From contig JBBRHU010000001.1 in the NCBI GenBank assembly GCA_038222255.1, forward strand, positions 8,031-72,030: a DNA stretch of 64,000 nucleotides, written 5' to 3'. This stretch comes from Fimbriimonadales bacterium. Its GTDB lineage: Bacteria > Armatimonadota > Fimbriimonadia > Fimbriimonadales > Fimbriimonadaceae. The number at the start of each line of letters is the position of its first letter. Within the stretch, counting starts at the first letter, position 1. The notes beneath the pieces are model-generated. The model was not told the DNA's origin, searched no databases, and saw nothing but the letters and a program-made list of their open reading frames with translations. Made by a program: the position numbers and the translations under genes. This document shows, in pieces, positions 8,757-62,092 of this stretch.

Positions 8757-9080
8757 TCAGTCAGACAAAGCTAGCACGGACATAAATTCCTCTGGAGCAT
8801 CGAAGATTTGCAACAACCTCATCGTCGGCTTGCTTGGCTTCCTCGCGCCTTGCTCCCAACTTTGAAGAGTCTTCACATTGACCGCAAGAAGATTTGCAAA
8901 CTGCGCTTGGCTCATGTGGCGTCGGGTTCTGATCGCGACAACCTCGTCACTGGAATATGAGCGTCCGGTTGGCACAACGGTCGTGGCGAGGTTCATATCT
9001 CCTCGCGCATATTCGATTCCTTCGAGCAGACCATGCTTGAGTCGGAGGGCAAGTGGGCTTCGATTATTTGGGGTGCTCAT
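8757..9080 (-). CDS. Xre/HTH antitoxin (HigA-like)
   Basis: MSQAQFANLLAVNVKTLQSWEQG HTH; 4-bp overlap with the upstream toxin gene. Confidence 0.85.
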   Translation of the reverse strand: MSTPNNRSPLALRLKHGLLEGIEYARGDMNLATTVVPTGRSYSSDEVVAIRTRRHMSQAQFANLLAVNVKTLQSWEQGARKPSKPTMRLLQIFDAPEEFMSVLALSD

Positions 9081-9448
9081 AGCTTTCCTCGATTGTGACG
9101 TTCTCTCAATTCCTCAATAAGGTGCCTCGCCAGTGCTTGCAACTCCTTCTTTTCGTCTGTTGTCAAGTCGTCTACTTCGTCTTTTCCGTACACGTCCAGC
9201 ATAAACAGGACGGTGAGTTCAGGGATATGGAGGTAGATCACTCGCAATCCGCCGCGCTTTCCCATTCCACGCCTTTTGTCTCCCCACCTCAGTTTCCGTA
9301 GTGGTGAGGCACCGGGAATAGCATGGCCCTTGTCGGGATGCTCAGCCAACTCCGCTTGGAAGCCAGTGTAAGCCTCGTCACTTCCGAAGTAGACCTTGAC
9401 TGCCCTTGAGAAGCCGACAGCCTCGATGAAGAGGTAGGTCCTGCTCAT
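9077..9448 (-). CDS. RelE/HigB-family toxin
   Basis: FIE...PDKGHAIPG...LRKLRW...GKRGGLRVIY...YGK...DL pattern; toxin-first gene order. Confidence 0.85.
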   Translation of the reverse strand: MSRTYLFIEAVGFSRAVKVYFGSDEAYTGFQAELAEHPDKGHAIPGASPLRKLRWGDKRRGMGKRGGLRVIYLHIPELTVLFMLDVYGKDEVDDLTTDEKKELQALARHLIEELRERHNRGKL

Positions 9449-20091: not shown

Positions 20092-20955
20092 CTAGTGCTG
20101 AAGGCTCCAATACACCACTCGAGTTGCGAGCGATTTGTTAAGAGTGTAGAAGTGAATGCCAGGAGCACCCTTATCTAGCAATTCGCGACATTGTCGTGTT
20201 GCCCACTCGATCCCAGTCGCCATCACCGCCTGATCGTCTTCTCTCACTCGGTTGAGTCGGAGGAGCAAGTCCTCAGGAATCGTTGCACCACACATCGAGG
20301 TGAACCGCTCAACCTGGCTCACGTTTGTCACCGGCATGATTCCTGGAACGATCGGAACGGTTACGCCTAGCGCCCGTGCTCGGTCAACAAATGCGAAATA
20401 GGCCGCATTGTCAAAGAATAACTGAGTCACCAAGAATCCGGCTCCGGCATTCACTTTGGTGACGAGGTGTGACAGGTCTGCTTCCTTGTCTGGGTTCTCA
20501 GGATGCCCTTCCGGATAGCAAGCGCCGCCAATGCAAAACTTTCCAGTCTGATTAACGAACTCGGTCAATTCAGATGCGTAGGCGAAACCGTTTTCTACGG
20601 CAATGAAACTGTCGTCTCCCTTTGGAGGGTCGCCTCTCAGGGCCAAGATATTCTCAACCCCAACATCTTCGAGCCGATTCAGCACATCCTGAATCTCGCC
20701 TCGCTCATGTCCCACGCACGTGAGATGCGCCATAGCTTCGATCCCGATCTTGTTTTTGATATGGGATGCCACTTCAACGCTAGTGTCTCGGGAGCTTCCT
20801 CCTGCCCCGTAGGTTACAGAGACAAAGTCGGGGTTAAGCTCGGCCAGATGCTCAATCGTCGAGTAGAGCTTTTCAATTCCTGCCTCAGTCTTTGGAGGAA
20901 AGAACTCGAACGAAAAAACAGGGCCTGGCTTTGAAAATCGATCAACTATGCGCAT
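20092..20955 (-). CDS. metF: 5,10-methylenetetrahydrofolate reductase
   Basis: SFEFFPPK; SVTYGAGG; AHLTCV; ALRGDPP; YPEGHP; TQLFF; HFYTLN. Confidence 0.97.
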   Translation of the reverse strand: MRIVDRFSKPGPVFSFEFFPPKTEAGIEKLYSTIEHLAELNPDFVSVTYGAGGSSRDTSVEVASHIKNKIGIEAMAHLTCVGHERGEIQDVLNRLEDVGVENILALRGDPPKGDDSFIAVENGFAYASELTEFVNQTGKFCIGGACYPEGHPENPDKEADLSHLVTKVNAGAGFLVTQLFFDNAAYFAFVDRARALGVTVPIVPGIMPVTNVSQVERFTSMCGATIPEDLLLRLNRVREDDQAVMATGIEWATRQCRELLDKGAPGIHFYTLNKSLATRVVYWSLQH

Positions 20956-33096: not shown

Positions 33097-34086
33097 CTAA
33101 AACCTCACCCTTTCCAGGTCCTCGATGCTTGCCCGAAGGGCCCTTCGATCGTAGAGCTTGGTGGTTCGTGAGTCCGCATGTCCAGCAATCCACTGAGCCT
33201 TCTCCAGACTTCCTCCATTCTCAAGGAAATTTGTGATTCCGGTGGCTCTGAAACTGTGACATGAAAATTTTCCCACAATTCCACACCGACTTACGCGCCT
33301 CTGAACCATCGCATACACATCAGTTCTTTGCATCTTTTTGGATTCTAGGAGGCCCGTTCTGCCCCTCGCGGATCTAAACAGTGGTGCATCGTTAGCACTT
33401 TCGCCGAGCGCCACGACGTACGAATCCAAGAACTCTTCGAGCCTGTGATTACAAGGGATATCTCGCTGCATTCCGCCCTTTTCGTTCAACTGAAGGTAGG
33501 ATCGTCGACCCTGCGCATAGTAGTCCTTCATCTTCAATTTACAGACAGCTTCAACTCGGGCAAAGCTGAATGCCATGACGCCGATCAACGCTCGATCCCT
33601 CAGGTCAATAAGGAGTGTCGGATCAAAAGAAGCAAATAGAACCTGCATATCTTCGTGATCGAAGGCAGGGGTCTTCCCTTCTGACCGTGAGAACTTCTCC
33701 GTCCGAACTTCTCGCACGGGGTTCCGTTCGAGCACCCCCTTTTCAACCCACCAGGCAAACAGCCGCCTTAAGGCAGAAAAATGCCGCTTGACAGAGGGTG
33801 GCGAGAGTTCTTTACGAAGCACTTCTCTATAGGCGGCAAGATGAAGGGTCGATACTTGGTCGACCGCAAACCCTCGCTCGACACACCACTGAGAAAATCG
33901 AGTCACATCCCTCAGATAGCTCTCTCGTGTGTTGCGGTTGGTGATCTCCGCCGCAAAAAACTCGAAGAAGGTCTCCTGGGTTCTCCCACTCGACCTGAGA
34001 ATGATGGCCGGCCACACCACTTGACCCTCTCGGATGGGAAAAAGTTGTGCCGGTTCGGTCTCATCCATCATTTGCATCTTACCCAC
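33097..34086 (-). CDS. Tyrosine recombinase/integrase
   Basis: N-terminal core-binding region (TRESYLRDV). Catalytic R (FARV), K (EKGG), HxxR (HSFR), H (AGHA), Y (KLYD). True start may be an ATG at 34068-34077. Confidence 0.93.
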   Translation of the reverse strand: MGKMQMMDETEPAQLFPIREGQVVWPAIILRSSGRTQETFFEFFAAEITNRNTRESYLRDVTRFSQWCVERGFAVDQVSTLHLAAYREVLRKELSPPSVKRHFSALRRLFAWWVEKGVLERNPVREVRTEKFSRSEGKTPAFDHEDMQVLFASFDPTLLIDLRDRALIGVMAFSFARVEAVCKLKMKDYYAQGRRSYLQLNEKGGMQRDIPCNHRLEEFLDSYVVALGESANDAPLFRSARGRTGLLESKKMQRTDVYAMVQRRVSRCGIVGKFSCHSFRATGITNFLENGGSLEKAQWIAGHADSRTTKLYDRRALRASIEDLERVRF

Positions 34087-37303: not shown

Positions 37304-37432
37304 ATATTTGCGCGCTATTTGGCGTAACCGGAGACGGGATTGGCTTCTGTTGAACCTACGAACGGATCCCGGCAGGACAACTTACGCCATTTAATTCGCA
37401 AATATTTATGCCGAGTATCTCGCAAAATGACA
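37277..37432. mobile_element. MITE-like element with imperfect ~50-bp terminal inverted repeats
   Basis: 37279-37327 versus the reverse complement of 37382-37430 is 36/49 identical. Ends read TATCACTTTGC and TGTCATTTTGC. No target-site duplication seen. Confidence 0.6.
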
Positions 37433-37896
37433 GACTTGCCTTGTCGATCAATCAAACCTGAGTCGATTTGAAGGGCGAGCACGTTCCTACTCCAGCCGTT
37501 CTCGGTCGTTTTTTGGGCATACCATAGCCTCTGCTCCCGCGTGGCAATCTTCTTAAGCAGGGCGAGATTGTGATACCAAGTGATTTGTGCAAGCGGCCCT
37601 TGCACAATTTCCTCTTCGGGCCAGGCCTCCGCAAACGACCTCATGTATTTCAGGTTTCGAGGTGAGAACCCCTTCATGGCCGGATATTCCGCCTTCAGGT
37701 CTTGAGCAAGCCTGTCAATGACCCGAGCGCCCCACCCCTCTTTGGTCTGCCGCTCCAGAATATCTCGTCCGATGCTCCAATACAGGAGAACCATTTCGCT
37801 GTTCACCGAAAGACTGGCACGCATCTGCGCATCTCGGATCCGGGCCTTAAGGCTCCCGAGAAGTTCGGCATATCCGGTCGGGACAATTTCGCTCAT
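37433..37896 (-). pseudogene. Truncated DUF1016/YhcG-family protein (N-terminal domain only)
   Basis: MSEIVPTGY...VNSEMVLLYWSIG...WGARVIDRLAQDL...GFSPRNLKYMR...ITWYHN...WSRNVL...RQGK. Family similarity stops at the MITE end; the PD-(D/E)XK domain is missing. Confidence 0.85.
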
Positions 37897-38044
37897 TCGT
37901 TTTCCGTCGGTCGGCGCGCGTTGCACTTGGCTCCATCCATATCTCAATTCCAGAACCGTTCCAAGTAGCTCTCCAGAAAAATTATGACGGGCTGAGTCGT
38001 CCTCGTTTTCGGATCCACTTCGGGTAGGGCCTCCGATTGCCGCA

Positions 38045-38200
38045 AAACAGCGAAGCTGGCGGTCGAATCCGGAGTGCGGAACGGTGGGTACCGAGGCGGG
38101 AAGCGCCTGTCGGCAGCCGTAAAGAGCGAAGCGGGACCATTTGCCTGTGGAGCGAAGCGGAATGGGCATCGGTCAGGCGTTCGCCGGCGGAGCGCTTCCG
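38045..38200 (+). repeat. 156-bp direct repeat, copy 2
   Basis: Matches 35471-35626. Confidence 0.92.
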
Positions 38201-38392: not shown

Positions 38393-38620
38393 TTAACCAG
38401 CCTCTTTGAGCGTCCGAGTTGCCTTCAGGTCTTCAGCGCTTGGGGCCGTTTGTCCTGACGGATGAATGTGGCAAAAAACCAGCGAAGTGGCCCAGCACGC
38501 TATTGCCCGCTGAATCACCTCTCTTGGGTGAACGAGGGCGCTGTTGGCCGTGCCGATGGACACGATTGAGTAGCTGATAATGGAGTTGCTGCTGTCGACG
38601 AGTCCGGAGACCTTGGTGCT
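38393..38620 (-). pseudogene. RadC/JAB-domain fragment
   Basis: VSIGTANSALVHPREV...HIHPSG...PSAED; stops before the usual LLDH motif and has no proper N-terminus. Confidence 0.78.
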
Positions 38621-38729
38621 CTCCCGATTACACCCTTGGCCACTGGAAATGACCAACCCGTTTCGTGAGCAGACCACTATGATGTTGGCGCATCGCGTGT
38701 GCTAACGTAGTTCCGTGTTAGAGAATCGT

Positions 38730-39920: not shown

Positions 39921-39936
39921 GTTCGGACATCCGAAC
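39921..39936. promoter_or_regulatory. Candidate parS site 1 (GTTCGGACATCCGAAC)
   Basis: One mismatch to the perfect palindromes at 49349 and 51715. Extended arms span 39916-39941. Lies between convergent genes, so it may also act as a terminator. Confidence 0.6.
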
Positions 39937-44725: not shown

Positions 44726-45622
44726 TCAGATGAATTCGAGAGTCTTTTTGCGTTCTTGGTCGGCGCGAAGTTCGGCGAAGCTCACGATCTTTTTAAGCTT
44801 GGGATTCCACACGGCTACGGTTCGGTAGAGCCAGACGTCAAGCTCTTTGCTGACTTCGAGGGCTTGAGTTTTTGCCTTGCGGTCCCACTTTCCGAGCTTC
44901 ACTTTGGTGAGAGGCTCTAGGTTTGAAGACTTCATCAGCGTCTCTGCCTTCACAAAGTAGAGTTCAAGATCGGCGCTATCCGTGAAGCTGAATCCAGATA
45001 GCTTGAGAAATCGTTTGCCATCTCGCTCGACCAGATCAGCATTTCCCTTTGCTCCTGCCTGAAAGGGACCGCTTGTTACGCGGATCTCATCGGTGTTGAA
45101 ATGAAAGCTTGCGGGGTGGATGAACGTCGTGTTTCGAATGGCCGTGCTCTTCATCGCGGGCTTGAGTTCTGCCCCTCCGAAGCCCACGGAGAATCGCTTG
45201 CACCAAACAGTTACGGCGTTGTATTCGTCGAGCTTTGTCCCGGTCGGGATGGTGTAGTTCTGGTCGCCAATGTTTCCCTTGAGCGTGCCAAGGTCAATGA
45301 AGCTACCGTCCTTGACCATCTTTGGGTCCATTCCCTTTACTAGATAGACGTGAACATCTGGGCCGTTAGAAGTCTTAAGATTTTCGAGTCGCAGCGTGCT
45401 TTGGCCGTTCTCGTCAAAAACAATCGCCTTCCCACTCGTCTCGTGAGAGTAAGAAGCAAACTGGCCACCCGCAACTTCCTTTGCCCCTGGAGTCGAAAGG
45501 TTTGGTGCCTTTTCAGCAACCTTTTGGTCGATGAAGAGAAGCTCTGGTCGAAACAGATACCAACCGATTCCTAGCAGTGGGAGCGTCGCAAGGGCGATGT
45601 TCTTCTTGTTGATTGTTCGCAT
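44726..45622 (-). CDS. Tandem DM13-domain protein
   Basis: HETSG; TSNGPDVHVYL; DLGTLKGNIGDQNY; VTVWCKRFSVGFG; a second divergent DM13 follows. Start taken as the ATG at 45622. Confidence 0.82.
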   Translation of the reverse strand: MRTINKKNIALATLPLLGIGWYLFRPELLFIDQKVAEKAPNLSTPGAKEVAGGQFASYSHETSGKAIVFDENGQSTLRLENLKTSNGPDVHVYLVKGMDPKMVKDGSFIDLGTLKGNIGDQNYTIPTGTKLDEYNAVTVWCKRFSVGFGGAELKPAMKSTAIRNTTFIHPASFHFNTDEIRVTSGPFQAGAKGNADLVERDGKRFLKLSGFSFTDSADLELYFVKAETLMKSSNLEPLTKVKLGKWDRKAKTQALEVSKELDVWLYRTVAVWNPKLKKIVSFAELRADQERKKTLEFI

Positions 45623-45890
45623 ACCGTCGGAATGCAAACCTGCGAAGTTTCCATCCAGGAATTTCAAGACACTTTCAACTTAATGCGTACAGTCACCATT
45701 CTTAGTTGGTGTGAGAGCCTCTGCACGTAGGAGCCATGTGGCTTCGAAGGCTGTGGATCTAGGCAATGATGCCTCTTTCAGCTAGAGGACATCGCAGCGT
45801 GCTTGCCGACTGGACGACGGAGACTTCCCCACTTCCCTTTTATCCCCTCCCGATTCCCTCGTGGTGGTATTATCCATCTTCACTTATTGG

Positions 45891-45950
45891 GTTGACAGCG
45901 GAAATCAACTAGGTTTTAATAACTTGGTGACCACAAAGTTGATCACCCAA
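45891..45950 (+). promoter_or_regulatory. Sigma70-type promoter and operator-like inverted repeats of the cop-rep-parAB operon
   Basis: TTGACA (45892), 17-bp spacer, TTTAAT (45915). GTTGA-N9-TCAAC overlaps the -35. Imperfect TTGGTGA...TCACCCAA repeat precedes the AGGAG RBS. Confidence 0.65.
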
Positions 45951-45959
45951 AGGAGAAAA

Positions 45960-46175
45960 ATGGCCCGAGGAAGAAAACCAACAACTGGAAGAACTGTAAC
46001 ACCTGCCGGCGTAACATTTGAACCCGGCGTTTTGGAATATCTCGAGTTTCTCCGTGAGCGCGACGAGCGTTCTAGGAGTTGGCTCATCAACCGGATGGTT
46101 AAAGAGCACGCGGCGCAATCAGGGATCGATATTGCTGCATTGGTTACAAAACAAGCAACGCATATGATCGACTGA
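45960..46175 (+). CDS. Small ribbon-helix-helix (CopG-like) regulator
   Basis: AGGAG RBS; 71 aa; beta-strand GVTF followed by two helices including RSRSWLIN; immediately upstream of the initiator. Confidence 0.7.
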   Translation: MARGRKPTTGRTVTPAGVTFEPGVLEYLEFLRERDERSRSWLINRMVKEHAAQSGIDIAALVTKQATHMID

Positions 46176-46176
46176 T

Positions 46177-48066
46177 TTGAAGCCTAACGAAGCCGAAGAC
46201 CATATTGGGAACCCGACGGGAGCGACAGCCTTTCTTGGCTATGCCCCTCCTACGTCGAGTACTACCTACACGCCGAATCAATTTTTTGACGTGGTCCTTC
46301 CTGTTGCATCTCGCGGATGCCTCCGGCTCGTTGCGTATTTAATTCGAAAAACTTTGGGGTGGAGCGATGAACATGGCAATCCACAAAACCCAGAAACCAC
46401 CGTCACCTACCGAGAACTGATTGAAAAAGCAGGTATCGGCCGAGGTCGGATCAAAGAAGCGATTGAAGAAGCAATCTCCTCTCGCTACATCAACTGCCTA
46501 AGACTTGGACAGCCCCACAAGGCTGGAGAAGAAGGCTTTAGTGCGCTCTATTCGTTGAGGTGGGATGAACGTGAAAGCTACATTACTAACCCCGATGAAT
46601 TCGATGGATTCTACGCTGGCAACGGAAACCTGACCCACATCCCCAATGACTTCTTTGACTACACCATTCCGAACGAAACGCTCGCGTTAGTTAAGGTGGT
46701 TGGAGTCATCATTCGGCACACAATCGGCTTCCAGACGAAATATGGCTTTCGTCGACAGCAAGTCGAAATGTCCTTCTCTGAGATCATGAGAAGGGCTGGC
46801 ATCGCTTCACGTTCAACGATGAACATAGCCATCAAAGAAGCTCTCGATAAGAACCACGTTTGTAAGGTAGCCGAAGGATTTTTTGATCCGAACGCTGGCG
46901 TTACAAGTTGCGCTGCATCCTATGGAATCAGGTGGCTTGATCAAACACTTGAAAAACCTCAAGTTGAACCTAAATCTGCCAACGGTTCCAAAATCGAACC
47001 GGCTAATCGGTTCCGAAATCGAACCGAGAAAGTCGAGACGGTTCCAAAATCGAACCGCGGGATAGGTTCCGAAATCGAACCGGCCAACGGTTCCAAAATC
47101 GAACCGGAAAGCGTTCCGAAATCGAACCGGGATGAGTTCCGAAATCGAACCGCTAGTAAAACAACAGATTTAAACAACCCATCAAAACAACAACAAATTG
47201 TTGCCGATGCTGTTGTTGTTCGCACAGAACTTCTGGCTTCTTTCAAGATGCTCCAGGAAGTCGGCTTCGACGAAGATGCCGCGAAAGCTCTTGCCTCGAA
47301 GTCTACAGAGCAGGTGATTCTTAAGCAGATCGAAGCATTGGAGCTTCGAAAGGTCTCAAGGAACAAACTTGGCATGCTTCGCAAGTCGATCGAGGAGGAT
47401 TGGCCATTACCAGATGCCGATGACTTGGGCGAGCATTCTGATGGCGGCCAAGAATTCGTAGGAAATTTCTATGCGGCCCTTGCTGGTCGTCAAGGAGAAC
47501 CATCGGTTACGGCTACGAAACACGAGCTAGAGCAAGCCTCTCGTTTTGTCGAAAGCATTAACCGCCAACTGGGAGAGGAACTTGACGAGTCAACGTTGGG
47601 TAGGAAGCTAGGACAGTTTGTCAGGCAGAACCAAGACCCATCTAAGGGCCCCATTCGAAGTCTTTCATATGCGATGAGGGCGTTTGGAGATCGCTTCTTT
47701 ATTAAGGTAGAGGAAGAAGAGAAGGCCAGAAAGCGTGAGGTTACGGATCGAGCTCGGCGAGCACACGAAGAGAAGTATTCAGAAGAATTTGCTCAATATC
47801 ATCGTGGCCTGCTTCAGCAATTCTCAGATCAGGATCCTCTCGTTGTAGAGAGATTTGAGCAAGGTGTTCAAACTCGTATCGACCGGATGGTCAATATGAG
47901 CCCGCGATACGTCGAGCGGATGAATCAGTCCTTCAGCGATCCGAATGAGCGGGCGCAGATGTTTGTTGAGTTTCTGAAGACAGATACAGAGTTCGAGGTG
48001 CTTGAATTCTGGGCTTGGGATGCCAAGATGAATCCAGCACCATTTTCCATGGAAGGAAATATATGA
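46177..48066 (+). CDS. Replication initiator with two tandem lambda-O-like (Phage_rep_O-type) winged-helix domains
   Basis: Internal duplication: TYTPNQFFD...YLIRKTLGW...TYRELIEKAGI and THIPNDFFD...IIRHTIGF...SFSEIMRRAGI. Iterons in the linker; NKLGMLRKSIEEDW in the C-terminal part; coupled to parA. Confidence 0.8.
   Translation: MKPNEAEDHIGNPTGATAFLGYAPPTSSTTYTPNQFFDVVLPVASRGCLRLVAYLIRKTLGWSDEHGNPQNPETTVTYRELIEKAGIGRGRIKEAIEEAISSRYINCLRLGQPHKAGEEGFSALYSLRWDERESYITNPDEFDGFYAGNGNLTHIPNDFFDYTIPNETLALVKVVGVIIRHTIGFQTKYGFRRQQVEMSFSEIMRRAGIASRSTMNIAIKEALDKNHVCKVAEGFFDPNAGVTSCAASYGIRWLDQTLEKPQVEPKSANGSKIEPANRFRNRTEKVETVPKSNRGIGSEIEPANGSKIEPESVPKSNRDEFRNRTASKTTDLNNPSKQQQIVADAVVVRTELLASFKMLQEVGFDEDAAKALASKSTEQVILKQIEALELRKVSRNKLGMLRKSIEEDWPLPDADDLGEHSDGGQEFVGNFYAALAGRQGEPSVTATKHELEQASRFVESINRQLGEELDESTLGRKLGQFVRQNQDPSKGPIRSLSYAMRAFGDRFFIKVEEEEKARKREVTDRARRAHEEKYSEEFAQYHRGLLQQFSDQDPLVVERFEQGVQTRIDRMVNMSPRYVERMNQSFSDPNERAQMFVEFLKTDTEFEVLEFWAWDAKMNPAPFSMEGNI
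46983..47220 (+). repeat. Seven 19-bp iterons (core GTTCCRAAATCGAACCG) plus an A-rich tract: candidate replication origin
   Basis: Copies start at 46983, 47008, 47039, 47064, 47088, 47111 and 47134. Followed by an A/C-rich, G-poor tract at 47153-47200. Confidence 0.88.
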
Positions 48067-48839
48067 GCACAACCATTGCAGTCATCAACCACAAAGGTGG
48101 TGTTGGGAAGACGACCACCGCCGTAAACCTGGCCGCCGGAATCGCACGAAGTGGTCACAAGGTGCTCCTCGTCGATCTAGATCCTCAAGGAAATGCGACC
48201 TACGGTTTGGGTGTGGACTTCGTTCCCGGCGAGTCTAAATCTATCGCCGACGCCCTCGTGAATCCTGAAATGGACCTAAACGAGATCATGTTAGGCACCG
48301 GCGAGGCGAATCTAAAGCTGTTGCCCTCTGATATTCGACTTGCGCACACTGCGGTTCAGCTGAGCTCAGCAGTGTTCCGCGAGACCCGGTTGTCGAAGAT
48401 TCTCAACAACATCGTGGGTTTTGACTACATCATCATTGATGCACAGCCGACTCTTGATCTTCTTCCAGTGAACGCGATCTATGCTGCGAGCAAGCTGCTC
48501 GTACCAACCGAATTGACTGGGTATGCGCTCTGCGGTTTGAGCGATCTGATTACATCCATGAAGATCACGAAGAGCGGGAGTGACTACGATTGGCGAATCG
48601 TTCTCACCAAAGTGACGGGACACGGAGAAGAGCGACAAACGCAGGCAACAAAGTATCTCGAGGGGTTTGCTGATCGAATTCTAGCTGCCAAGATTCGACA
48701 CAACGAGGCAATTCCACGAAGTCAAATCGAGACGAACGAGGAGGACCCAATTCCAGTGATCATGCAGAAGTCTTATAGCCGCGGTGCTCAAGATTATCGG
48801 GCGTTGGTGAAGGAGGTTCTTGAACTATGGCCCGCTTAA
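48063..48839 (+). CDS. parA: ParA partition ATPase
   Basis: KGGVGKTT deviant Walker A; VDLDPQGN; YIIID. ATG overlaps the rep stop (ATGA). Confidence 0.95.
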   Translation: MSTTIAVINHKGGVGKTTTAVNLAAGIARSGHKVLLVDLDPQGNATYGLGVDFVPGESKSIADALVNPEMDLNEIMLGTGEANLKLLPSDIRLAHTAVQLSSAVFRETRLSKILNNIVGFDYIIIDAQPTLDLLPVNAIYAASKLLVPTELTGYALCGLSDLITSMKITKSGSDYDWRIVLTKVTGHGEERQTQATKYLEGFADRILAAKIRHNEAIPRSQIETNEEDPIPVIMQKSYSRGAQDYRALVKEVLELWPA

Positions 48840-49630
48840 CTCAACGACTCGCAAAAGCTGCAGGTGAAAAGCCTGAGGGCATCGTTAGCTTTTTGGGGGA
48901 GGGAAGTGAGCGATTTGCACGAGTCCCTGTGGTCAGCATTGAGCCAGACCCTGATCAGCCACGCAAACACGTAGGTGATATTGAGGGCCTCAAAGCATCT
49001 ATTCGCGAACACGGAATCATTCAGCCGATCGTTGTTTCACCGCACGGCGAAGAACTCTTTAGGATCATTGCTGGTGAGCGCCGATTCACGGCGGCCAAAG
49101 AGATTGGTCTTGAGACTGTCCCTGCGATCATTCGGACCATCGAAGAGCATCGCCGACTTGAAATCCAGATCATTGAGAATATTCACCGGCAAGAACTTAG
49201 CCCCTTTGAAGAAGCCCAAGCCTATCGCCGCCTGCTAGAAGAATTCAAGCTCTCACAGCGTGACTTGGGAACAAGGGTAGGGAAGTCAGCGGCGAGTATC
49301 AACGAGACCCTTCGAATTCTGAGCCTGCCAGAAGATTTGCATGAAAGTGTTCGGACGTCCGAACGCCTTACGCGGTCTGTGTTGCTTGAGATTGCCAAAG
49401 AAGAGGTTCCAGAAACTCAACGTGCACTACTCCACCGAGCGCTGACGGGCCAACTTACGGTGAAGACTCTGAGGGAGTCAAAGCAAAAGCAGATCGAAAT
49501 TCAAGAGACGAGTAGCACGTCGCTCAAACTTTCAAACGCCACAATCACGATTCGATTTCGTAGTCCGGAATTCACCCAAGAAGACATCCGCAAGGCGCTG
49601 AACGAAGCACTCGAATCACTAAACAGTTAA
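48827..49630 (+). CDS. parB: ParB partition protein (CTPase + HTH)
   Basis: PDQPRK; GIIQPI; IAGERRF; ENIHRQEL; HTH SQRDLGTRVGKS. Confidence 0.95.
   Translation: MARLTQRLAKAAGEKPEGIVSFLGEGSERFARVPVVSIEPDPDQPRKHVGDIEGLKASIREHGIIQPIVVSPHGEELFRIIAGERRFTAAKEIGLETVPAIIRTIEEHRRLEIQIIENIHRQELSPFEEAQAYRRLLEEFKLSQRDLGTRVGKSAASINETLRILSLPEDLHESVRTSERLTRSVLLEIAKEEVPETQRALLHRALTGQLTVKTLRESKQKQIEIQETSSTSLKLSNATITIRFRSPEFTQEDIRKALNEALESLNS
49349..49364. promoter_or_regulatory. Candidate parS site 2, inside parB
   Basis: Perfect palindrome GTTCGGACGTCCGAAC. Confidence 0.65.
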
Positions 49631-49742
49631 GCCTAAACGTTAACGGTCAAAGTCAACGTTCTTGCTTGACCTTGCGACCAGGGAGACTAAGCCTTGAACT
49701 AGTACCCAAAAGTGCAAGGTGTATAATCGTTTGAATTCAACT

Positions 49743-59237: not shown

Positions 59238-60368
59238 ATGAGCACAAAAATATACACTTCAGAAAGTGTTAGCGAAGGGCACCCAGACAAGCTCGCCGAT
59301 CAGATTTCGGACGCGCTGTTAGATGATTGTTTGCGTCAAGATCCTATGGCGCGAGTTGCAATCGAGACCTTCCTAACTCGAGGTATCGCTGTCGTTGCTG
59401 GTGAAGTCACCGTCAACGGTTATGTGGATGTCACGCGGATTGTTCGCGAAACCGTTAACGCCGTTGGGTATACGGATACCGAACTTGGATTCGACGGACA
59501 TACCTGCGGAGTGATGGTTGCCATCCAAGAGCAGTCTCCGGATATCGCCATGGGTGTTGACACCGGTGGCGCTGGCGACCAAGGCATGATGTTCGGCTTG
59601 GCCACAAACGAAACCGCCGAATTGATGCCACTTCCCATCGCGATCGCTCACGCAATCACCCGCGTAGCAGCTGATGTGCGACATAAGCACCCGTCGCTCG
59701 GTCTTCGCCCAGATGCGAAGAGCCAGGTTTCGGTTGTTTACGAAAACGGCGTGCCTAAGAAGATCGATACCATCGTTCTCTCGCACCAGCATGGTCCGCA
59801 ACTCACCCAGGAAGCTGTTTCCCAGATCGTCCACGATCGAATTTTGACCCCCGTGCTCGCAGAATATGCGAAGTACGTTGATGGGCCGATCACCTACCAC
59901 ATCAACCCAACGGGCAACTTCGTGGTTGGCGGACCTCAGGGCGACACCGGCTTGACCGGTCGAAAGATCATTGTCGACACCTACGGTGGCCTCTGCCCCC
60001 ACGGCGGCGGTGCATTCAGCGGAAAGGACCCGACGAAGGTTGACCGAAGCGCAGCCTACATGGCTCGCCACGTTGCAAAGTGCATCGTAGCTGCTGGATT
60101 GGCTGATCGAGCGCAGATTGCGCTTGCCTACGCCATCGGCGTTGCCCAGCCGGTTTCGATCAACATCGATACCTTTGGGACTGAGAAGATCGATCCGATG
60201 GAGATCGAAAAGCGAGTCCTTGCAAGCTTCGACCTTTCGCCGGCTGGCATCATCAGCCACCTTAACCTTCGACGGCCGATCTACCTCAGCACGGCTAAGA
60301 ACGGTCACTTCGGCAATGCGTCTTTCCCGTGGGAAAGCACCGCAGCTGCAGAGAGACTCCAGGGCTGA
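59238..60368 (+). CDS. metK: S-adenosylmethionine synthetase
   Basis: TSESVSEGHPDK; GAGDQG; GGPQGDTGLTGRKIIVDTYGG; GGAFSGKD. Confidence 0.98.
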   Translation: MSTKIYTSESVSEGHPDKLADQISDALLDDCLRQDPMARVAIETFLTRGIAVVAGEVTVNGYVDVTRIVRETVNAVGYTDTELGFDGHTCGVMVAIQEQSPDIAMGVDTGGAGDQGMMFGLATNETAELMPLPIAIAHAITRVAADVRHKHPSLGLRPDAKSQVSVVYENGVPKKIDTIVLSHQHGPQLTQEAVSQIVHDRILTPVLAEYAKYVDGPITYHINPTGNFVVGGPQGDTGLTGRKIIVDTYGGLCPHGGGAFSGKDPTKVDRSAAYMARHVAKCIVAAGLADRAQIALAYAIGVAQPVSINIDTFGTEKIDPMEIEKRVLASFDLSPAGIISHLNLRRPIYLSTAKNGHFGNASFPWESTAAAERLQG

Positions 60369-60421: not shown

Positions 60422-62092
60422 ATGAGTAATGATCGAGAATGTATCTATGACCCGCTGCATGTCCTCATGGCGCGGTTTGAGAACACCAAAGCAATCGACA
60501 CTTCAGTCGACCCGTTCGAGGGTCTTTCGGTTGAAGAAGTTCTCAAAAAGCATATTGTCGACGGCATCAAGAAAAACCTTGAGCGCCATATCGACGATGC
60601 GCTGAAATCTTACGAACCTCTAGCCATCATCAACGACATCCTTCTCGATGGGATGAAGACGGTTGGTGAACTCTTTGGCTCAGGCAAGATGCAGCTTCCT
60701 TTCGTGCTTCAAAGCGCGGAAGTAATGAAAGCTTCTGTTAAGGTGCTTGAACCTAAGATGGAGAAGACAGAGGGCAACGAGAAGGGATCCATTCTCCTTG
60801 CGACAGTTGCTGGAGACGTGCATGACATTGGCAAGAACCTTGTCGATATCATCTTGAGCAACAACGGCTACCGAGTCGTAAATATCGGTATCAAGCAGCC
60901 CGTCAACACGATTCTCGAGAAGTGCCGCGAGCACCAGTGCGACGTGATCGGCATGAGTGGTTTGCTCGTGAAGAGCACCGTCATCATGCGAGAGAACCTG
61001 CTGGAGATGAACTCGCGGTCTCTCAGCGATATCCCCGTTATTCTTGGTGGAGCGGCTCTCACCCGATCGTACGTTGAGGAAGATCTTCGAGCCGTTTACG
61101 ATGGCTCAGTCTTCTACGCACAAGACGCTTTTGAAGGGCTCCGCTTGATGGCCGAGATTCGCGAGGCTAAAGATTCAGGCCGACCTCTCATCGCAGAAGC
61201 CTCTGAAGCGCAGCGAACCAAGTCACACCGGCTGCCAGACTCAAACCCGGCCCTCTACGTTTTTGATGGAACCAAGAGCGATGTTAGAACCGACATCGAG
61301 CCGCCGAAGCTGCCCTTCTACGGAGCCAAGAAGCAGACCAAATTCGACATCTTTGAGCTGTACAAGTACATCAACAAGATTTCGCTCTTCCGTGGCCAGT
61401 GGCAATTCAAGCGCCAAGAAGGGATGGACAATCTAGCCTTCAACGCATGGCTTGACGAGAACGTCGAACCCATCTTTACGCGATTTAAGCGCGACCTCGC
61501 GACCTACATGCAGCCCAAGGTCAAATGGGGTTACTTCTGGTGCCAGTCCGAAGGCAACGACCTCATCATCTACCAAGAAGATGCCAAAACCGAGCGATGC
61601 CGTTTCCGGTTCCCCCGGCAATCTGACATGCGACGTTCCTGCCTCAGCGACTTCTTTAAGTCGACTGATTCAGGCGTGATGGACGTTGTCGGATTCCACA
61701 TCGTAACGGTAGGCGAAGAGATCTCCAAGTACGAACGATCACTGTTCCAAGCTGGCAATTTCCAAGACTATCTCTTCACCCACGGAATGGGCGTTGAGAC
61801 CGCAGAAGCACTCGCTGAATACTGGCACCGCCAGATTAGATTCGAACTCGGCATTGCCGATCAAGAGCCTGACGAGATGCGGTTCTTGTTCAGCGCGAAG
61901 TATCACGGCTCCCGCTACTCCTTCGGCTATCCGGCTTGTCCGAACCTAGAGGATCAGGCGATGCTCATGGAATTGCTAAGCCCACAAGACATTGGGATTG
62001 AGCTCAGCGAAGAGTTTATGCTTGTCCCAGAGCAGTCGACCACCGCGATCGTCGTTCATCACCCCGAGGCCAAGTACTTCAACATTCGCTAG
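60422..62092 (+). CDS. metH: B12-dependent methionine synthase, C-terminal half (cap, cobalamin-binding and reactivation domains)
   Basis: MQLPFVLQSAE; GDVHDIGKNLV (DxHxxG); SGLL; GGAA; RYSFGYPACP; PEQST; HHPEAKYF. Confidence 0.93.
   Translation: MSNDRECIYDPLHVLMARFENTKAIDTSVDPFEGLSVEEVLKKHIVDGIKKNLERHIDDALKSYEPLAIINDILLDGMKTVGELFGSGKMQLPFVLQSAEVMKASVKVLEPKMEKTEGNEKGSILLATVAGDVHDIGKNLVDIILSNNGYRVVNIGIKQPVNTILEKCREHQCDVIGMSGLLVKSTVIMRENLLEMNSRSLSDIPVILGGAALTRSYVEEDLRAVYDGSVFYAQDAFEGLRLMAEIREAKDSGRPLIAEASEAQRTKSHRLPDSNPALYVFDGTKSDVRTDIEPPKLPFYGAKKQTKFDIFELYKYINKISLFRGQWQFKRQEGMDNLAFNAWLDENVEPIFTRFKRDLATYMQPKVKWGYFWCQSEGNDLIIYQEDAKTERCRFRFPRQSDMRRSCLSDFFKSTDSGVMDVVGFHIVTVGEEISKYERSLFQAGNFQDYLFTHGMGVETAEALAEYWHRQIRFELGIADQEPDEMRFLFSAKYHGSRYSFGYPACPNLEDQAMLMELLSPQDIGIELSEEFMLVPEQSTTAIVVHHPEAKYFNIR

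Follow-up and report, generated by a model that had tools for sequence, protein, structure and literature searches.

An origin of replication inside the gene for its own initiator is already known from lambda O and from pSK41-type RepA_N plasmids. In the latter, the Rep boxes lie centrally within rep and an in-gene origin is the rule; in the pSK41 Rep protein, an origin-encoded linker stands between the N-terminal domain for DNA binding and a C-terminal domain which is host-specific and binds DnaG (PMC5703833). The iterons of RepA_N replicons are semi-palindromes converging on an A-tract, and chromosomal copies of these replicons are linked to recombinases (PMC7145576). Here we analyzed a 64,000-nt stretch of DNA from a Fimbriimonadales bacterium (assembly GCA_038222255.1, contig JBBRHU010000001.1, hereafter C1), which corresponds to C1 positions 8031-72030, covers 88% of the circle described below and is called the window. 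It contains a replicon module in which genes for a small ribbon-helix-helix (RHH) protein, a 629-aa replication initiator (Rep), ParA and ParB follow each other, with an array of iterons inside rep. An earlier note on this DNA, made from its letters alone, did not recognize the arrangement as RepABC, RepA/Rep_3, RctB or DnaA-like; in its in-gene origin, the module follows the rule of the pSK41-type plasmids.

We consider it probable that C1 is a complete circular plasmid of a Fimbriimonas-like member of Armatimonadota, with the basic replicon and an active partition system at 45.9-49.6 kb of the window (Table 1). C1 has 72,551 bp and is the longest of the 458 contigs in a 3.42-Mb metagenome-assembled genome (MAG) that was derived from sediment and is 78% complete. 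Its terminal 141 nt are identical at both ends, which gives a circle of 72,410 bp, and its ends are shared with none of the other contigs in the assembly. An assembler using k=141 leaves an exact 141-nt end overlap on a circle, so that the identical ends are the signature by which we regard C1 as circular. Analysis of the other contigs located dnaA on C104 and two further ParB_N genes on C373 and C26, while candidate parS sites (allowing up to one mismatch) were found in four copies on C1 and in none on the other 457 contigs. Because the contig closes on itself, dnaA lies elsewhere and the candidate parS sites are confined to it, C1 is a secondary replicon, which agrees with the proposal of a separate replicon with its own rep and par genes. 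It is a plasmid of ordinary size and not a megaplasmid: the label "chromid/megaplasmid" given to it before does not suit a circle of 72.4 kb, whose relatives lie on contigs of about 40-73 kb (two of them shown to be circular).

Protein family scans covered about 50 of the roughly 70 open reading frames (ORFs) of C1. Among the scanned ORFs, no phage structural, conjugation, helicase, primase or loader genes were found, which is in line with the claim that no phage structural, conjugation or adjacent integrase genes flank the module; the recombinase present 12 kb away is part of a shared backbone. Gene orientation diverges at 45667/45861. Cumulative GC skew had also been proposed as a check. In four of the five elements compared, the distance between the iterons and the minimum of the detrended curve was within 2-13% of the circle, and the maximum was on roughly the opposite side (on C1 the amplitude was greater than in block shuffles, p about 0.003). 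We take the GC skew as a modest argument for theta replication in both directions. On C1, the minimum is adjoined by a DUF1016 gene (37315-38169) and, at 38393-38677, by a RadC-like fragment.

The AlphaFold model of Rep, built from 49 homologues with a mean pLDDT of 77, revealed two winged-helix domains (WH1, about residues 20-130, and WH2, about residues 150-255), a disordered linker (residues 259-348) and a C-terminal domain (residues 348-620) that is confidently modelled and all-helical. The expectation that the 629-aa protein would have two winged helix-turn-helix (wHTH) domains was therefore borne out by the model. An internal duplication is evident from the alignment of residues 19-129 with residues 142-253 at 28% identity (BLASTP E 1e-15). 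Rep reached no model in Pfam or NCBIfam (no Pfam family at E<=1). The 49 relatives scanned gave only weak wHTH matches, namely to MarR_2, HTH_24, HTH_36 and Phage_rep_O (the last matched by seven of them, best E 0.008), and none of them matched Rep_3 or RepA_N at E<=0.1. The best profile match of Rep was PHROG 18020, "replication initiation O-like", which matched the second domain with E 8.5e-7. Furthermore, hhalign of Rep against lambda O paired YLIRKTLGW with AILRKTYGW (E 0.005, probability 7%). The resemblance to lambda O, as claimed before, is thus real in the PHROG match, the RKTxGW motif and the in-gene layout, but it is weak and does not extend to a Phage_rep_O match.

In the structural comparison, the top ranks of Foldseek for Rep were Pi and RepE54, both in their iteron-bound form (probability about 0.98, E 0.01-0.1, which is weak). 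VIA re-alignment gave Z 10.4 over 193 residues (root-mean-square deviation 4.0) for Pi (2nra_C) and Z 9-9.9 for the RepE54 chains. Both alignments span both winged-helix domains of Rep (model residues 28-256, about 10% identity), whereas single-domain wHTH proteins reached Z 8-9.4 across only about 85 residues. It is this match of the whole tandem unit, and not of a single domain, that points to the RepE/Pi fold class, and the predicted model shows its N-terminal unit to be a tandem winged helix with the fold of iteron-bound RepE and Pi. The module had been described as not RepA/Rep_3-like; this holds in sequence, where there is no Rep_3 match, but not in fold, given the Z scores for Pi and RepE54. 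Rep is a member of a large unnamed initiator family with the origin inside the initiator gene, and fails the sequence test for Rep_3, Phage_rep_O and RepA_N; we group it with the iteron-type theta replicons. The C-terminal domain modelled alone had a pLDDT of 89.5. A sequence profile search of solved structures returned apolipoprotein-like helical noise only, and a complex prediction of the C-terminal domain with the host DnaB (L076) scored 0.00, controls not run, and speaks neither way. Language-model leads for the domain (gp59-like loader, L. lactis RepB_C and DnaB_2) all scored below 0.9 and were not used.

The seven iterons are far more than the 0.16 expected by chance, and no count of seven was reached in 100 shuffles. 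Each is a 6-bp inverted repeat (CGGTTC/GAACCG) around an A-tract, and the start-to-start spacings of 25, 31, 25, 24, 23 and 23 bp are mostly not multiples of three. The iterons are translated in all three frames (GSKIEP, RFRNRT and VPKSNR), and the encoded peptide maps to the disordered linker, where pLDDT is below 50. Such translation of one word in every frame places the constraint on the DNA. The A-rich tract directly 3' of the last iteron is a candidate DNA-unwinding element, in which positions 47160-47199 (27.5% GC) form the lowest 40-nt window within 45600-49700. Iteron arrays were detected at the same in-gene place and with nearly the same spacing in seven relatives (G002, G010, G014, the element Yong-DA, L015 from a conjugative element, G001:C29, and L053, a chromosomal copy in Phycisphaerales), with clade-specific sequences such as GGTTCAAAAATCGAAGCG, GTTCAAAAAGTGGACCG and AACGGTCAGAAAACCCCACCGG. 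Because parAB are missing from two of the seven, the repeats are tied to Rep and not to ParB. In this way, the layout of in-gene dyad iterons and an A-rich tract at the part encoding the disordered linker is conserved across phyla, with iterons at this place in relatives from Armatimonadota, Planctomycetota, Hydrogenedentota and Omnitrophota.

The RHH gene, rep, parA and parB are four co-oriented and tightly coupled genes in one operon: a 1-nt gap separates the RHH stop from the rep start, the rep stop overlaps the parA ATG, and parA and parB overlap by 13 nt. These genes, the duplication within Rep, the iterons and the promoter were all found where the earlier note had placed them. The promoter was missed by a consensus scanner because of the T at position 2 of its -10 hexamer, where A is expected. 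Around the -35, an unchanged box, GGGTTGACA.C.GAAATCA, is shared by the window, G002, PNMZ01 and Yong-DA, whose flanking sequences diverge; no inverted pair of half-iterons was seen at this box. The promoter had been described as carrying operator-like inverted repeats. An inverted repeat (GGTGACCA...TGATCACC) is indeed present in the window at 45926-45947, downstream of the -10, but it was dropped as an operator, since it is not conserved in G002. Of 46 related loci, about 25 have a homologous RHH gene immediately 5' of rep. Judged from its sequence and place, the small RHH protein is likely a transcriptional repressor of the operon, in a CopG-like role.

Downstream of rep, ParA also matches the ParA_partition and RepA partition models (E 1e-22). 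The perfect 16-bp palindrome GTTCGGACGTCCGAAC found inside parB recurs in six copies around the module in G002:C56. In Yong-DA and G014, the place of GTTCGGACGTCCGAAC is taken by GTTCAGACGTCTGAAC, with four to five copies, and the change between the two is a compensatory G/C to A/T change in both half-sites, by which the palindrome is kept. One palindrome copy stays inside parB in the relatives. Because the palindrome is confined to C1 in the assembly and shows compensatory changes in relatives, it is likely parS. The canonical parS TGTTTCACGTGAAACA had no match in the window even with three mismatches. In the two closest relatives, L029 (5639-5654, G002:C56) and L030, a perfect parS lies about 60 nt upstream of the operon -35, whereas at the equivalent place in the window only a degenerate parS remnant is left.

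The tyrosine recombinase of C1, 12 kb from the module and thus not adjacent to it, is the only backbone gene beyond the rep-par operon that is common to related elements, with homologues in G002:C56, G001:C29, G005:C30 and Yong-DA. At its start there is a perfect 14-6-14 inverted repeat, a candidate recombination site, and Yong-DA has a 13-6-13 counterpart with different arms beside its recombinase. The inverted repeat fits a multimer-resolution site of Cre/loxP-like or Xer/dif-like type, and the recombinase is likely a multimer resolvase and/or an integrase. In the Planctomycetota loci, the recombinase adjoins the module inside Mb-sized contigs, a placement which suggests that it also serves integration.

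A word-indexed protein search detected at least 318 homologues of Rep, many of them on contigs of 30-50 kb. When 1.84 billion representatives were searched with the N-terminal profile of Rep, the matches amounted to 809 clusters at 50% identity, of which 249 had E <= 1e-30. In GTDB species genomes, 42 Rep loci were found in Fimbriimonadaceae, Chthonomonadales, Hydrogenedentota, Omnitrophota, Phycisphaerae, Tepidisphaeraceae and Pirellulaceae. Most loci of sufficient length retain the order RHH-Rep-ParA-ParB; a search of related genomes for cop-rep-parAB synteny had been proposed as a check. The N-terminal part of Rep matches across phyla, while the C-terminal part is found only in Armatimonadota-type relatives. 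A second element of the same genus, G001:C29 (72.9 kb), closes with a 55-nt overlap and carries a Rep homologue with nine in-gene iterons. No relative of Rep was found in PLSDB.

Three GenBank records of 42,586 bp (ON073792.1, our L013; PP438434.1; PP438404.1), named Aphanizomenon phage Yong-DA, Planktothrix phage Pag-JY44 and Aphanizomenon phage Afl-JY11, carry a Rep that is 47% identical to the one studied here. These names, together with a PHROG family as the best profile match of Rep, would make C1 a phage-plasmid or a prophage. We give this explanation hardly any credence, as the circular ON073792 has 36 annotated genes, among them polysaccharide enzymes, a recombinase, RHH, a "replication protein", ParA and ParB, but its annotation holds no capsid, portal, terminase or tail gene, and no structural family was met among the scanned ORFs of C1. 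By content, ON073792 is a plasmid of the Rep family, most likely from a heterotroph living in the cyanobacterial cultures and probably from a Fimbriimonadaceae bacterium.

Other relatives bear on the question of whether the module is extrachromosomal in C1. Rep homologues of 43% identity with in-gene iterons of their own but without parAB were observed in L014 (JAHCHO010000003.1) and L015, L016 and L017 (ENA scaffolds); their neighbours, on scaffolds of 445-500 kb, are genes for a TrwC relaxase and a TraG/TrwB coupling protein. The initiator family seems here to serve a conjugative element or a conjugative plasmid of large size. In the 4.89-Mb chromosome of a Phycisphaerales MAG (OY969903.1), two copies of recombinase-RHH-Rep-ParA-ParB (L053, with four in-gene iterons, and L055) lie about 160 kb apart and are probably integrated episomes. 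Because modules occur in chromosomes and in a conjugative element, the family is not confined to free plasmids. C1 might accordingly be a chromosomal integrative or conjugative element, its circle coming from a repeat or an excised intermediate. The module with an adjacent tyrosine recombinase in Phycisphaerales contigs of 0.4-5 Mb, twice in one chromosome of 4.9 Mb, the Rep homologues beside TrwC and TraG, and the recombinase with its candidate site on C1 itself all favor that explanation. Nevertheless, we find it very unlikely, since the exact 141-nt end overlap is of the kind produced when an assembler with k=141 meets a circle, the ends are shared with no other contig, C1 exceeds in length all other contigs of a very fragmented assembly, which might be expected of a small separate replicon, and the partition system is complete with sites spread around the circle. 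Three findings that had been named beforehand as contrary to an origin here, namely dnaA on the contig without a skew inflection, an inert 4-kb remnant and an initiator without a wHTH fold, were not made.

The cargo of C1 includes genes for polysaccharide biosynthesis and export, genes of the S-adenosylmethionine (SAM) cycle (metF, a split metH, metK and a PfkB kinase), a Fic protein, a sulfatase and an extracytoplasmic function (ECF) sigma factor. Two overlapping small genes with weak RelE-like and HTH_3/MqsA-like matches may serve the plasmid as a toxin-antitoxin addiction pair. The metK gene and the homocysteine/pterin (N-terminal) half of metH on C1 are the sole copies found in the 78%-complete assembly. 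A metK was found in each of the 30 relatives searched, in most of them as one copy (a few have a weak second match), and the plasmid metK is 65-78% identical to that of most relatives, which is within the range of the lineage. The circle might thus be a chromid, that is, an essential secondary chromosome carrying core genes absent from the chromosome: within the assembly, metK and the homocysteine-methyltransferase half of metH were found on no contig but C1, metF and both metH halves are there as well, and the metK genes of relatives are mostly found on larger contigs or a single closed contig without Rep. However, a chromosomal metK may simply be missing from the incomplete assembly. The GC content of C1 is 52.8% compared with 54.8% for the whole assembly, no tRNA gene was found in the window, and the cargo is almost wholly different between related elements. 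Additionally, only eight of the 24 genomes of the genus searched have a match to Rep, none of them closed or near-closed. We therefore judge a chromid to be improbable, and retain the plasmid reading.

Several observations weigh against a free plasmid that replicates from the in-gene iterons. On C1, 9 kb separate the GC-skew minimum (window position about 37,974) from the iterons, and in Yong-DA, the one exception among the five elements, the minimum is on the opposite side. Near the iterons there is no E. coli-type DnaA box (the one in the window is far from the origin, and one is below chance expectation), so dependence on host DnaA is without support. Comparison of the C-terminal domain of Rep with solved structures gave short helical overlaps and nothing informative (in the wide VIA search Z reached 5.6 at best, over 57 residues, and Foldseek gave E >= 0.6), and the role of this domain is a guess by analogy. 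The RHH assignment depends on matches under the Pfam cut-off, and the inverted repeat behind the promoter is not kept as such in G002, the closest relative. Finally, homologous modules are also present in Mb-sized Phycisphaerales chromosomes and in the TrwC/TraG conjugative element.

Table 1. Features of the replicon module and of other parts of C1 (window positions unless stated otherwise).
Feature	Position	Strand	Evidence or remark
Operon promoter	45889..45920	+	-35 TTGACA 45892-45897; 17-nt spacer; -10 TTTAAT 45915-45920
Conserved box GGGTTGACAGCGGAAATCA	45889-45907	+	spans -35; includes half-iteron-like GAAATC.AAC
RHH protein, 71 aa	45960..46175	+	RHH_1 E 0.004, RHH_5 E 0.019, both below Pfam cut-off
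Rep initiator, 629 aa, TTG start	46177..48066	+	AlphaFold model, internal duplication, fold matches
Seven iterons GGTTCCRAAATCGAACCG (18 bp)	46984..47152	+	inside rep; five perfect, two with one mismatch
A-rich tract, candidate DNA-unwinding element	47153..47205	+	low GC, directly 3' of last iteron
ParA, 258 aa, Walker-type, Soj-like, no N-terminal HTH	48063..48839	+	AAA_31 E 1e-46, CbiA E 8e-20
ParB, 267 aa, Spo0J/Noc-like	48827..49630	+	ParB_N E 7e-27, HTH_ParB E 3e-17, TIGR00180 E 5e-44
Candidate parS GTTCGGACGTCCGAAC, perfect 16-bp palindrome	49349..49364		inside parB
Candidate parS, second perfect copy	51715..51730		palindrome match
Candidate parS GTTCGGACATCCGAAC, one mismatch	39921..39936		palindrome match
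Candidate parS, fourth copy	contig position 72226, just past window end		palindrome match
Tyrosine recombinase	33097..34086	-	Phage_integrase E 4e-16
Perfect 14-6-14 inverted repeat TTACCCACACATAA AAGGGG TTATGTGTGGGTAA	34079..34112		at recombinase start; candidate recombination site
metF	20092-20955		
Split metH	55288-57237 and 60422-62092		
metK	59238-60368		
RelE-like and HTH_3/MqsA-like overlapping small genes	8757-9448	-	weak matches (E 2e-4 and E 2e-5)

We propose that every iteron would be bound by Rep as a monomer, with one half-site (GGTTC/GAACC, about 12 bp apart) for each of its two homologous winged helices, and that the array of bound Rep would melt the A-rich tract. Recruitment of parts of the host replisome (helicase, primase or loader) would then fall to the C-terminal domain, in which the clades differ, and replication would be of theta type and probably bidirectional. 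Repression of the operon by the RHH protein, and possibly also by Rep at the half-iteron of the -35 box, would set copy number. ParB would load at the four parS sites and ParA would segregate the copies, while the tyrosine recombinase would resolve multimers at the 14-6-14 site and in relatives may also integrate the element. A wider interpretation, which we consider doubtful, is that the initiator consists of a covalently fused pair of lambda-O-like winged helices reading each palindromic iteron as a pseudo-dimeric monomer; as a living intermediate, it would stand between initiators of the dimeric O-type and those of the tandem winged-helix RepE/Pi-type. On this view, the episomes of Armatimonadota, Planctomycetota and neighbouring phyla would mainly be built on the RHH-Rep-ParAB-recombinase cassette, which could switch among free plasmid, integrated and conjugative forms, and the plasmid might hold the only SAM-cycle genes of its host.

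In the literature searched, no description was found of Armatimonadota plasmid replicons, of this Rep family or of the three "phage" records. The replicon family is well defined, widespread and unannotated, and occurs in phyla without genetic tools; to our knowledge, replicating vectors are lacking for Planctomycetota. The cassette of about 3.8 kb, with its iterons, candidate unwinding tract and candidate parS, is a candidate shuttle-vector backbone for such hard-to-handle phyla. A model of the family (about 800 clusters, no Pfam or NCBIfam entry) would let plasmid-detection tools spot missed or mislabelled episomes. Iteron and parS specificity diverge by paired changes within the family. The family also offers a natural test of the relation between tandem winged-helix initiators and lambda O.

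Comparison with known systems revealed a mixture of likenesses and differences. The partition genes resemble chromosome-type ParABS (Soj/Spo0J) in the small ParA without HTH, the ParB_N and HTH_ParB domains of ParB and the 16-bp palindromes with one site in parB, but the site is GTTCGGACGTCCGAAC here and TGTTTCACGTGAAACA in the canonical system. With Rep_3-type initiators (RepE of mini-F and Pi of R6K; PDB 1rep and 2nra), Rep shares two tandem winged-helix domains that superpose as a whole unit, and in both cases direct-repeat iterons lie beside an AT-rich tract, binding and melting being predicted for Rep. However, Rep has no Rep_3 (PF01051) sequence match, is 2.5 times longer through the addition of a 90-residue disordered linker and a 280-residue helical domain, and its winged helices are still recognizable as duplicates of each other; its iterons are in-gene and dyad-symmetric, with no DnaA box.

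With lambda O, the family has in common an origin placed in the initiator gene between the N-terminal wHTH part and the C-terminal recruiting part, and the RKTxGW motif of lambda O aligns with Rep. The annotated lambda ori likewise has dyad iterons inside O, with arms around an A-tract and a spacing of 20-25 bp, followed by an A-rich tract. The differences are that Rep does not reach Pfam Phage_rep_O (PF04492), that it represents two fused O-like domains whereas lambda O is a dimer of one, that there are seven iterons here against four in lambda, and that rep is followed by parA and parB instead of a P-like loader gene. The RepA_N replicons of Firmicutes (pSK41 and pTZ2162) are similar in the three-part initiator, the origin-encoded linker and the lineage-specific C-terminal domain. 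In sequence, Rep does not match RepA_N (PF06970), for which there was a language-model lead only (score 0.92). In organization, a single oligomerizing wHTH in RepA_N stands against the covalent tandem in Rep, and the antisense RNA copy control of pSK41 stands against the small RHH gene that precedes rep in the present plasmid.

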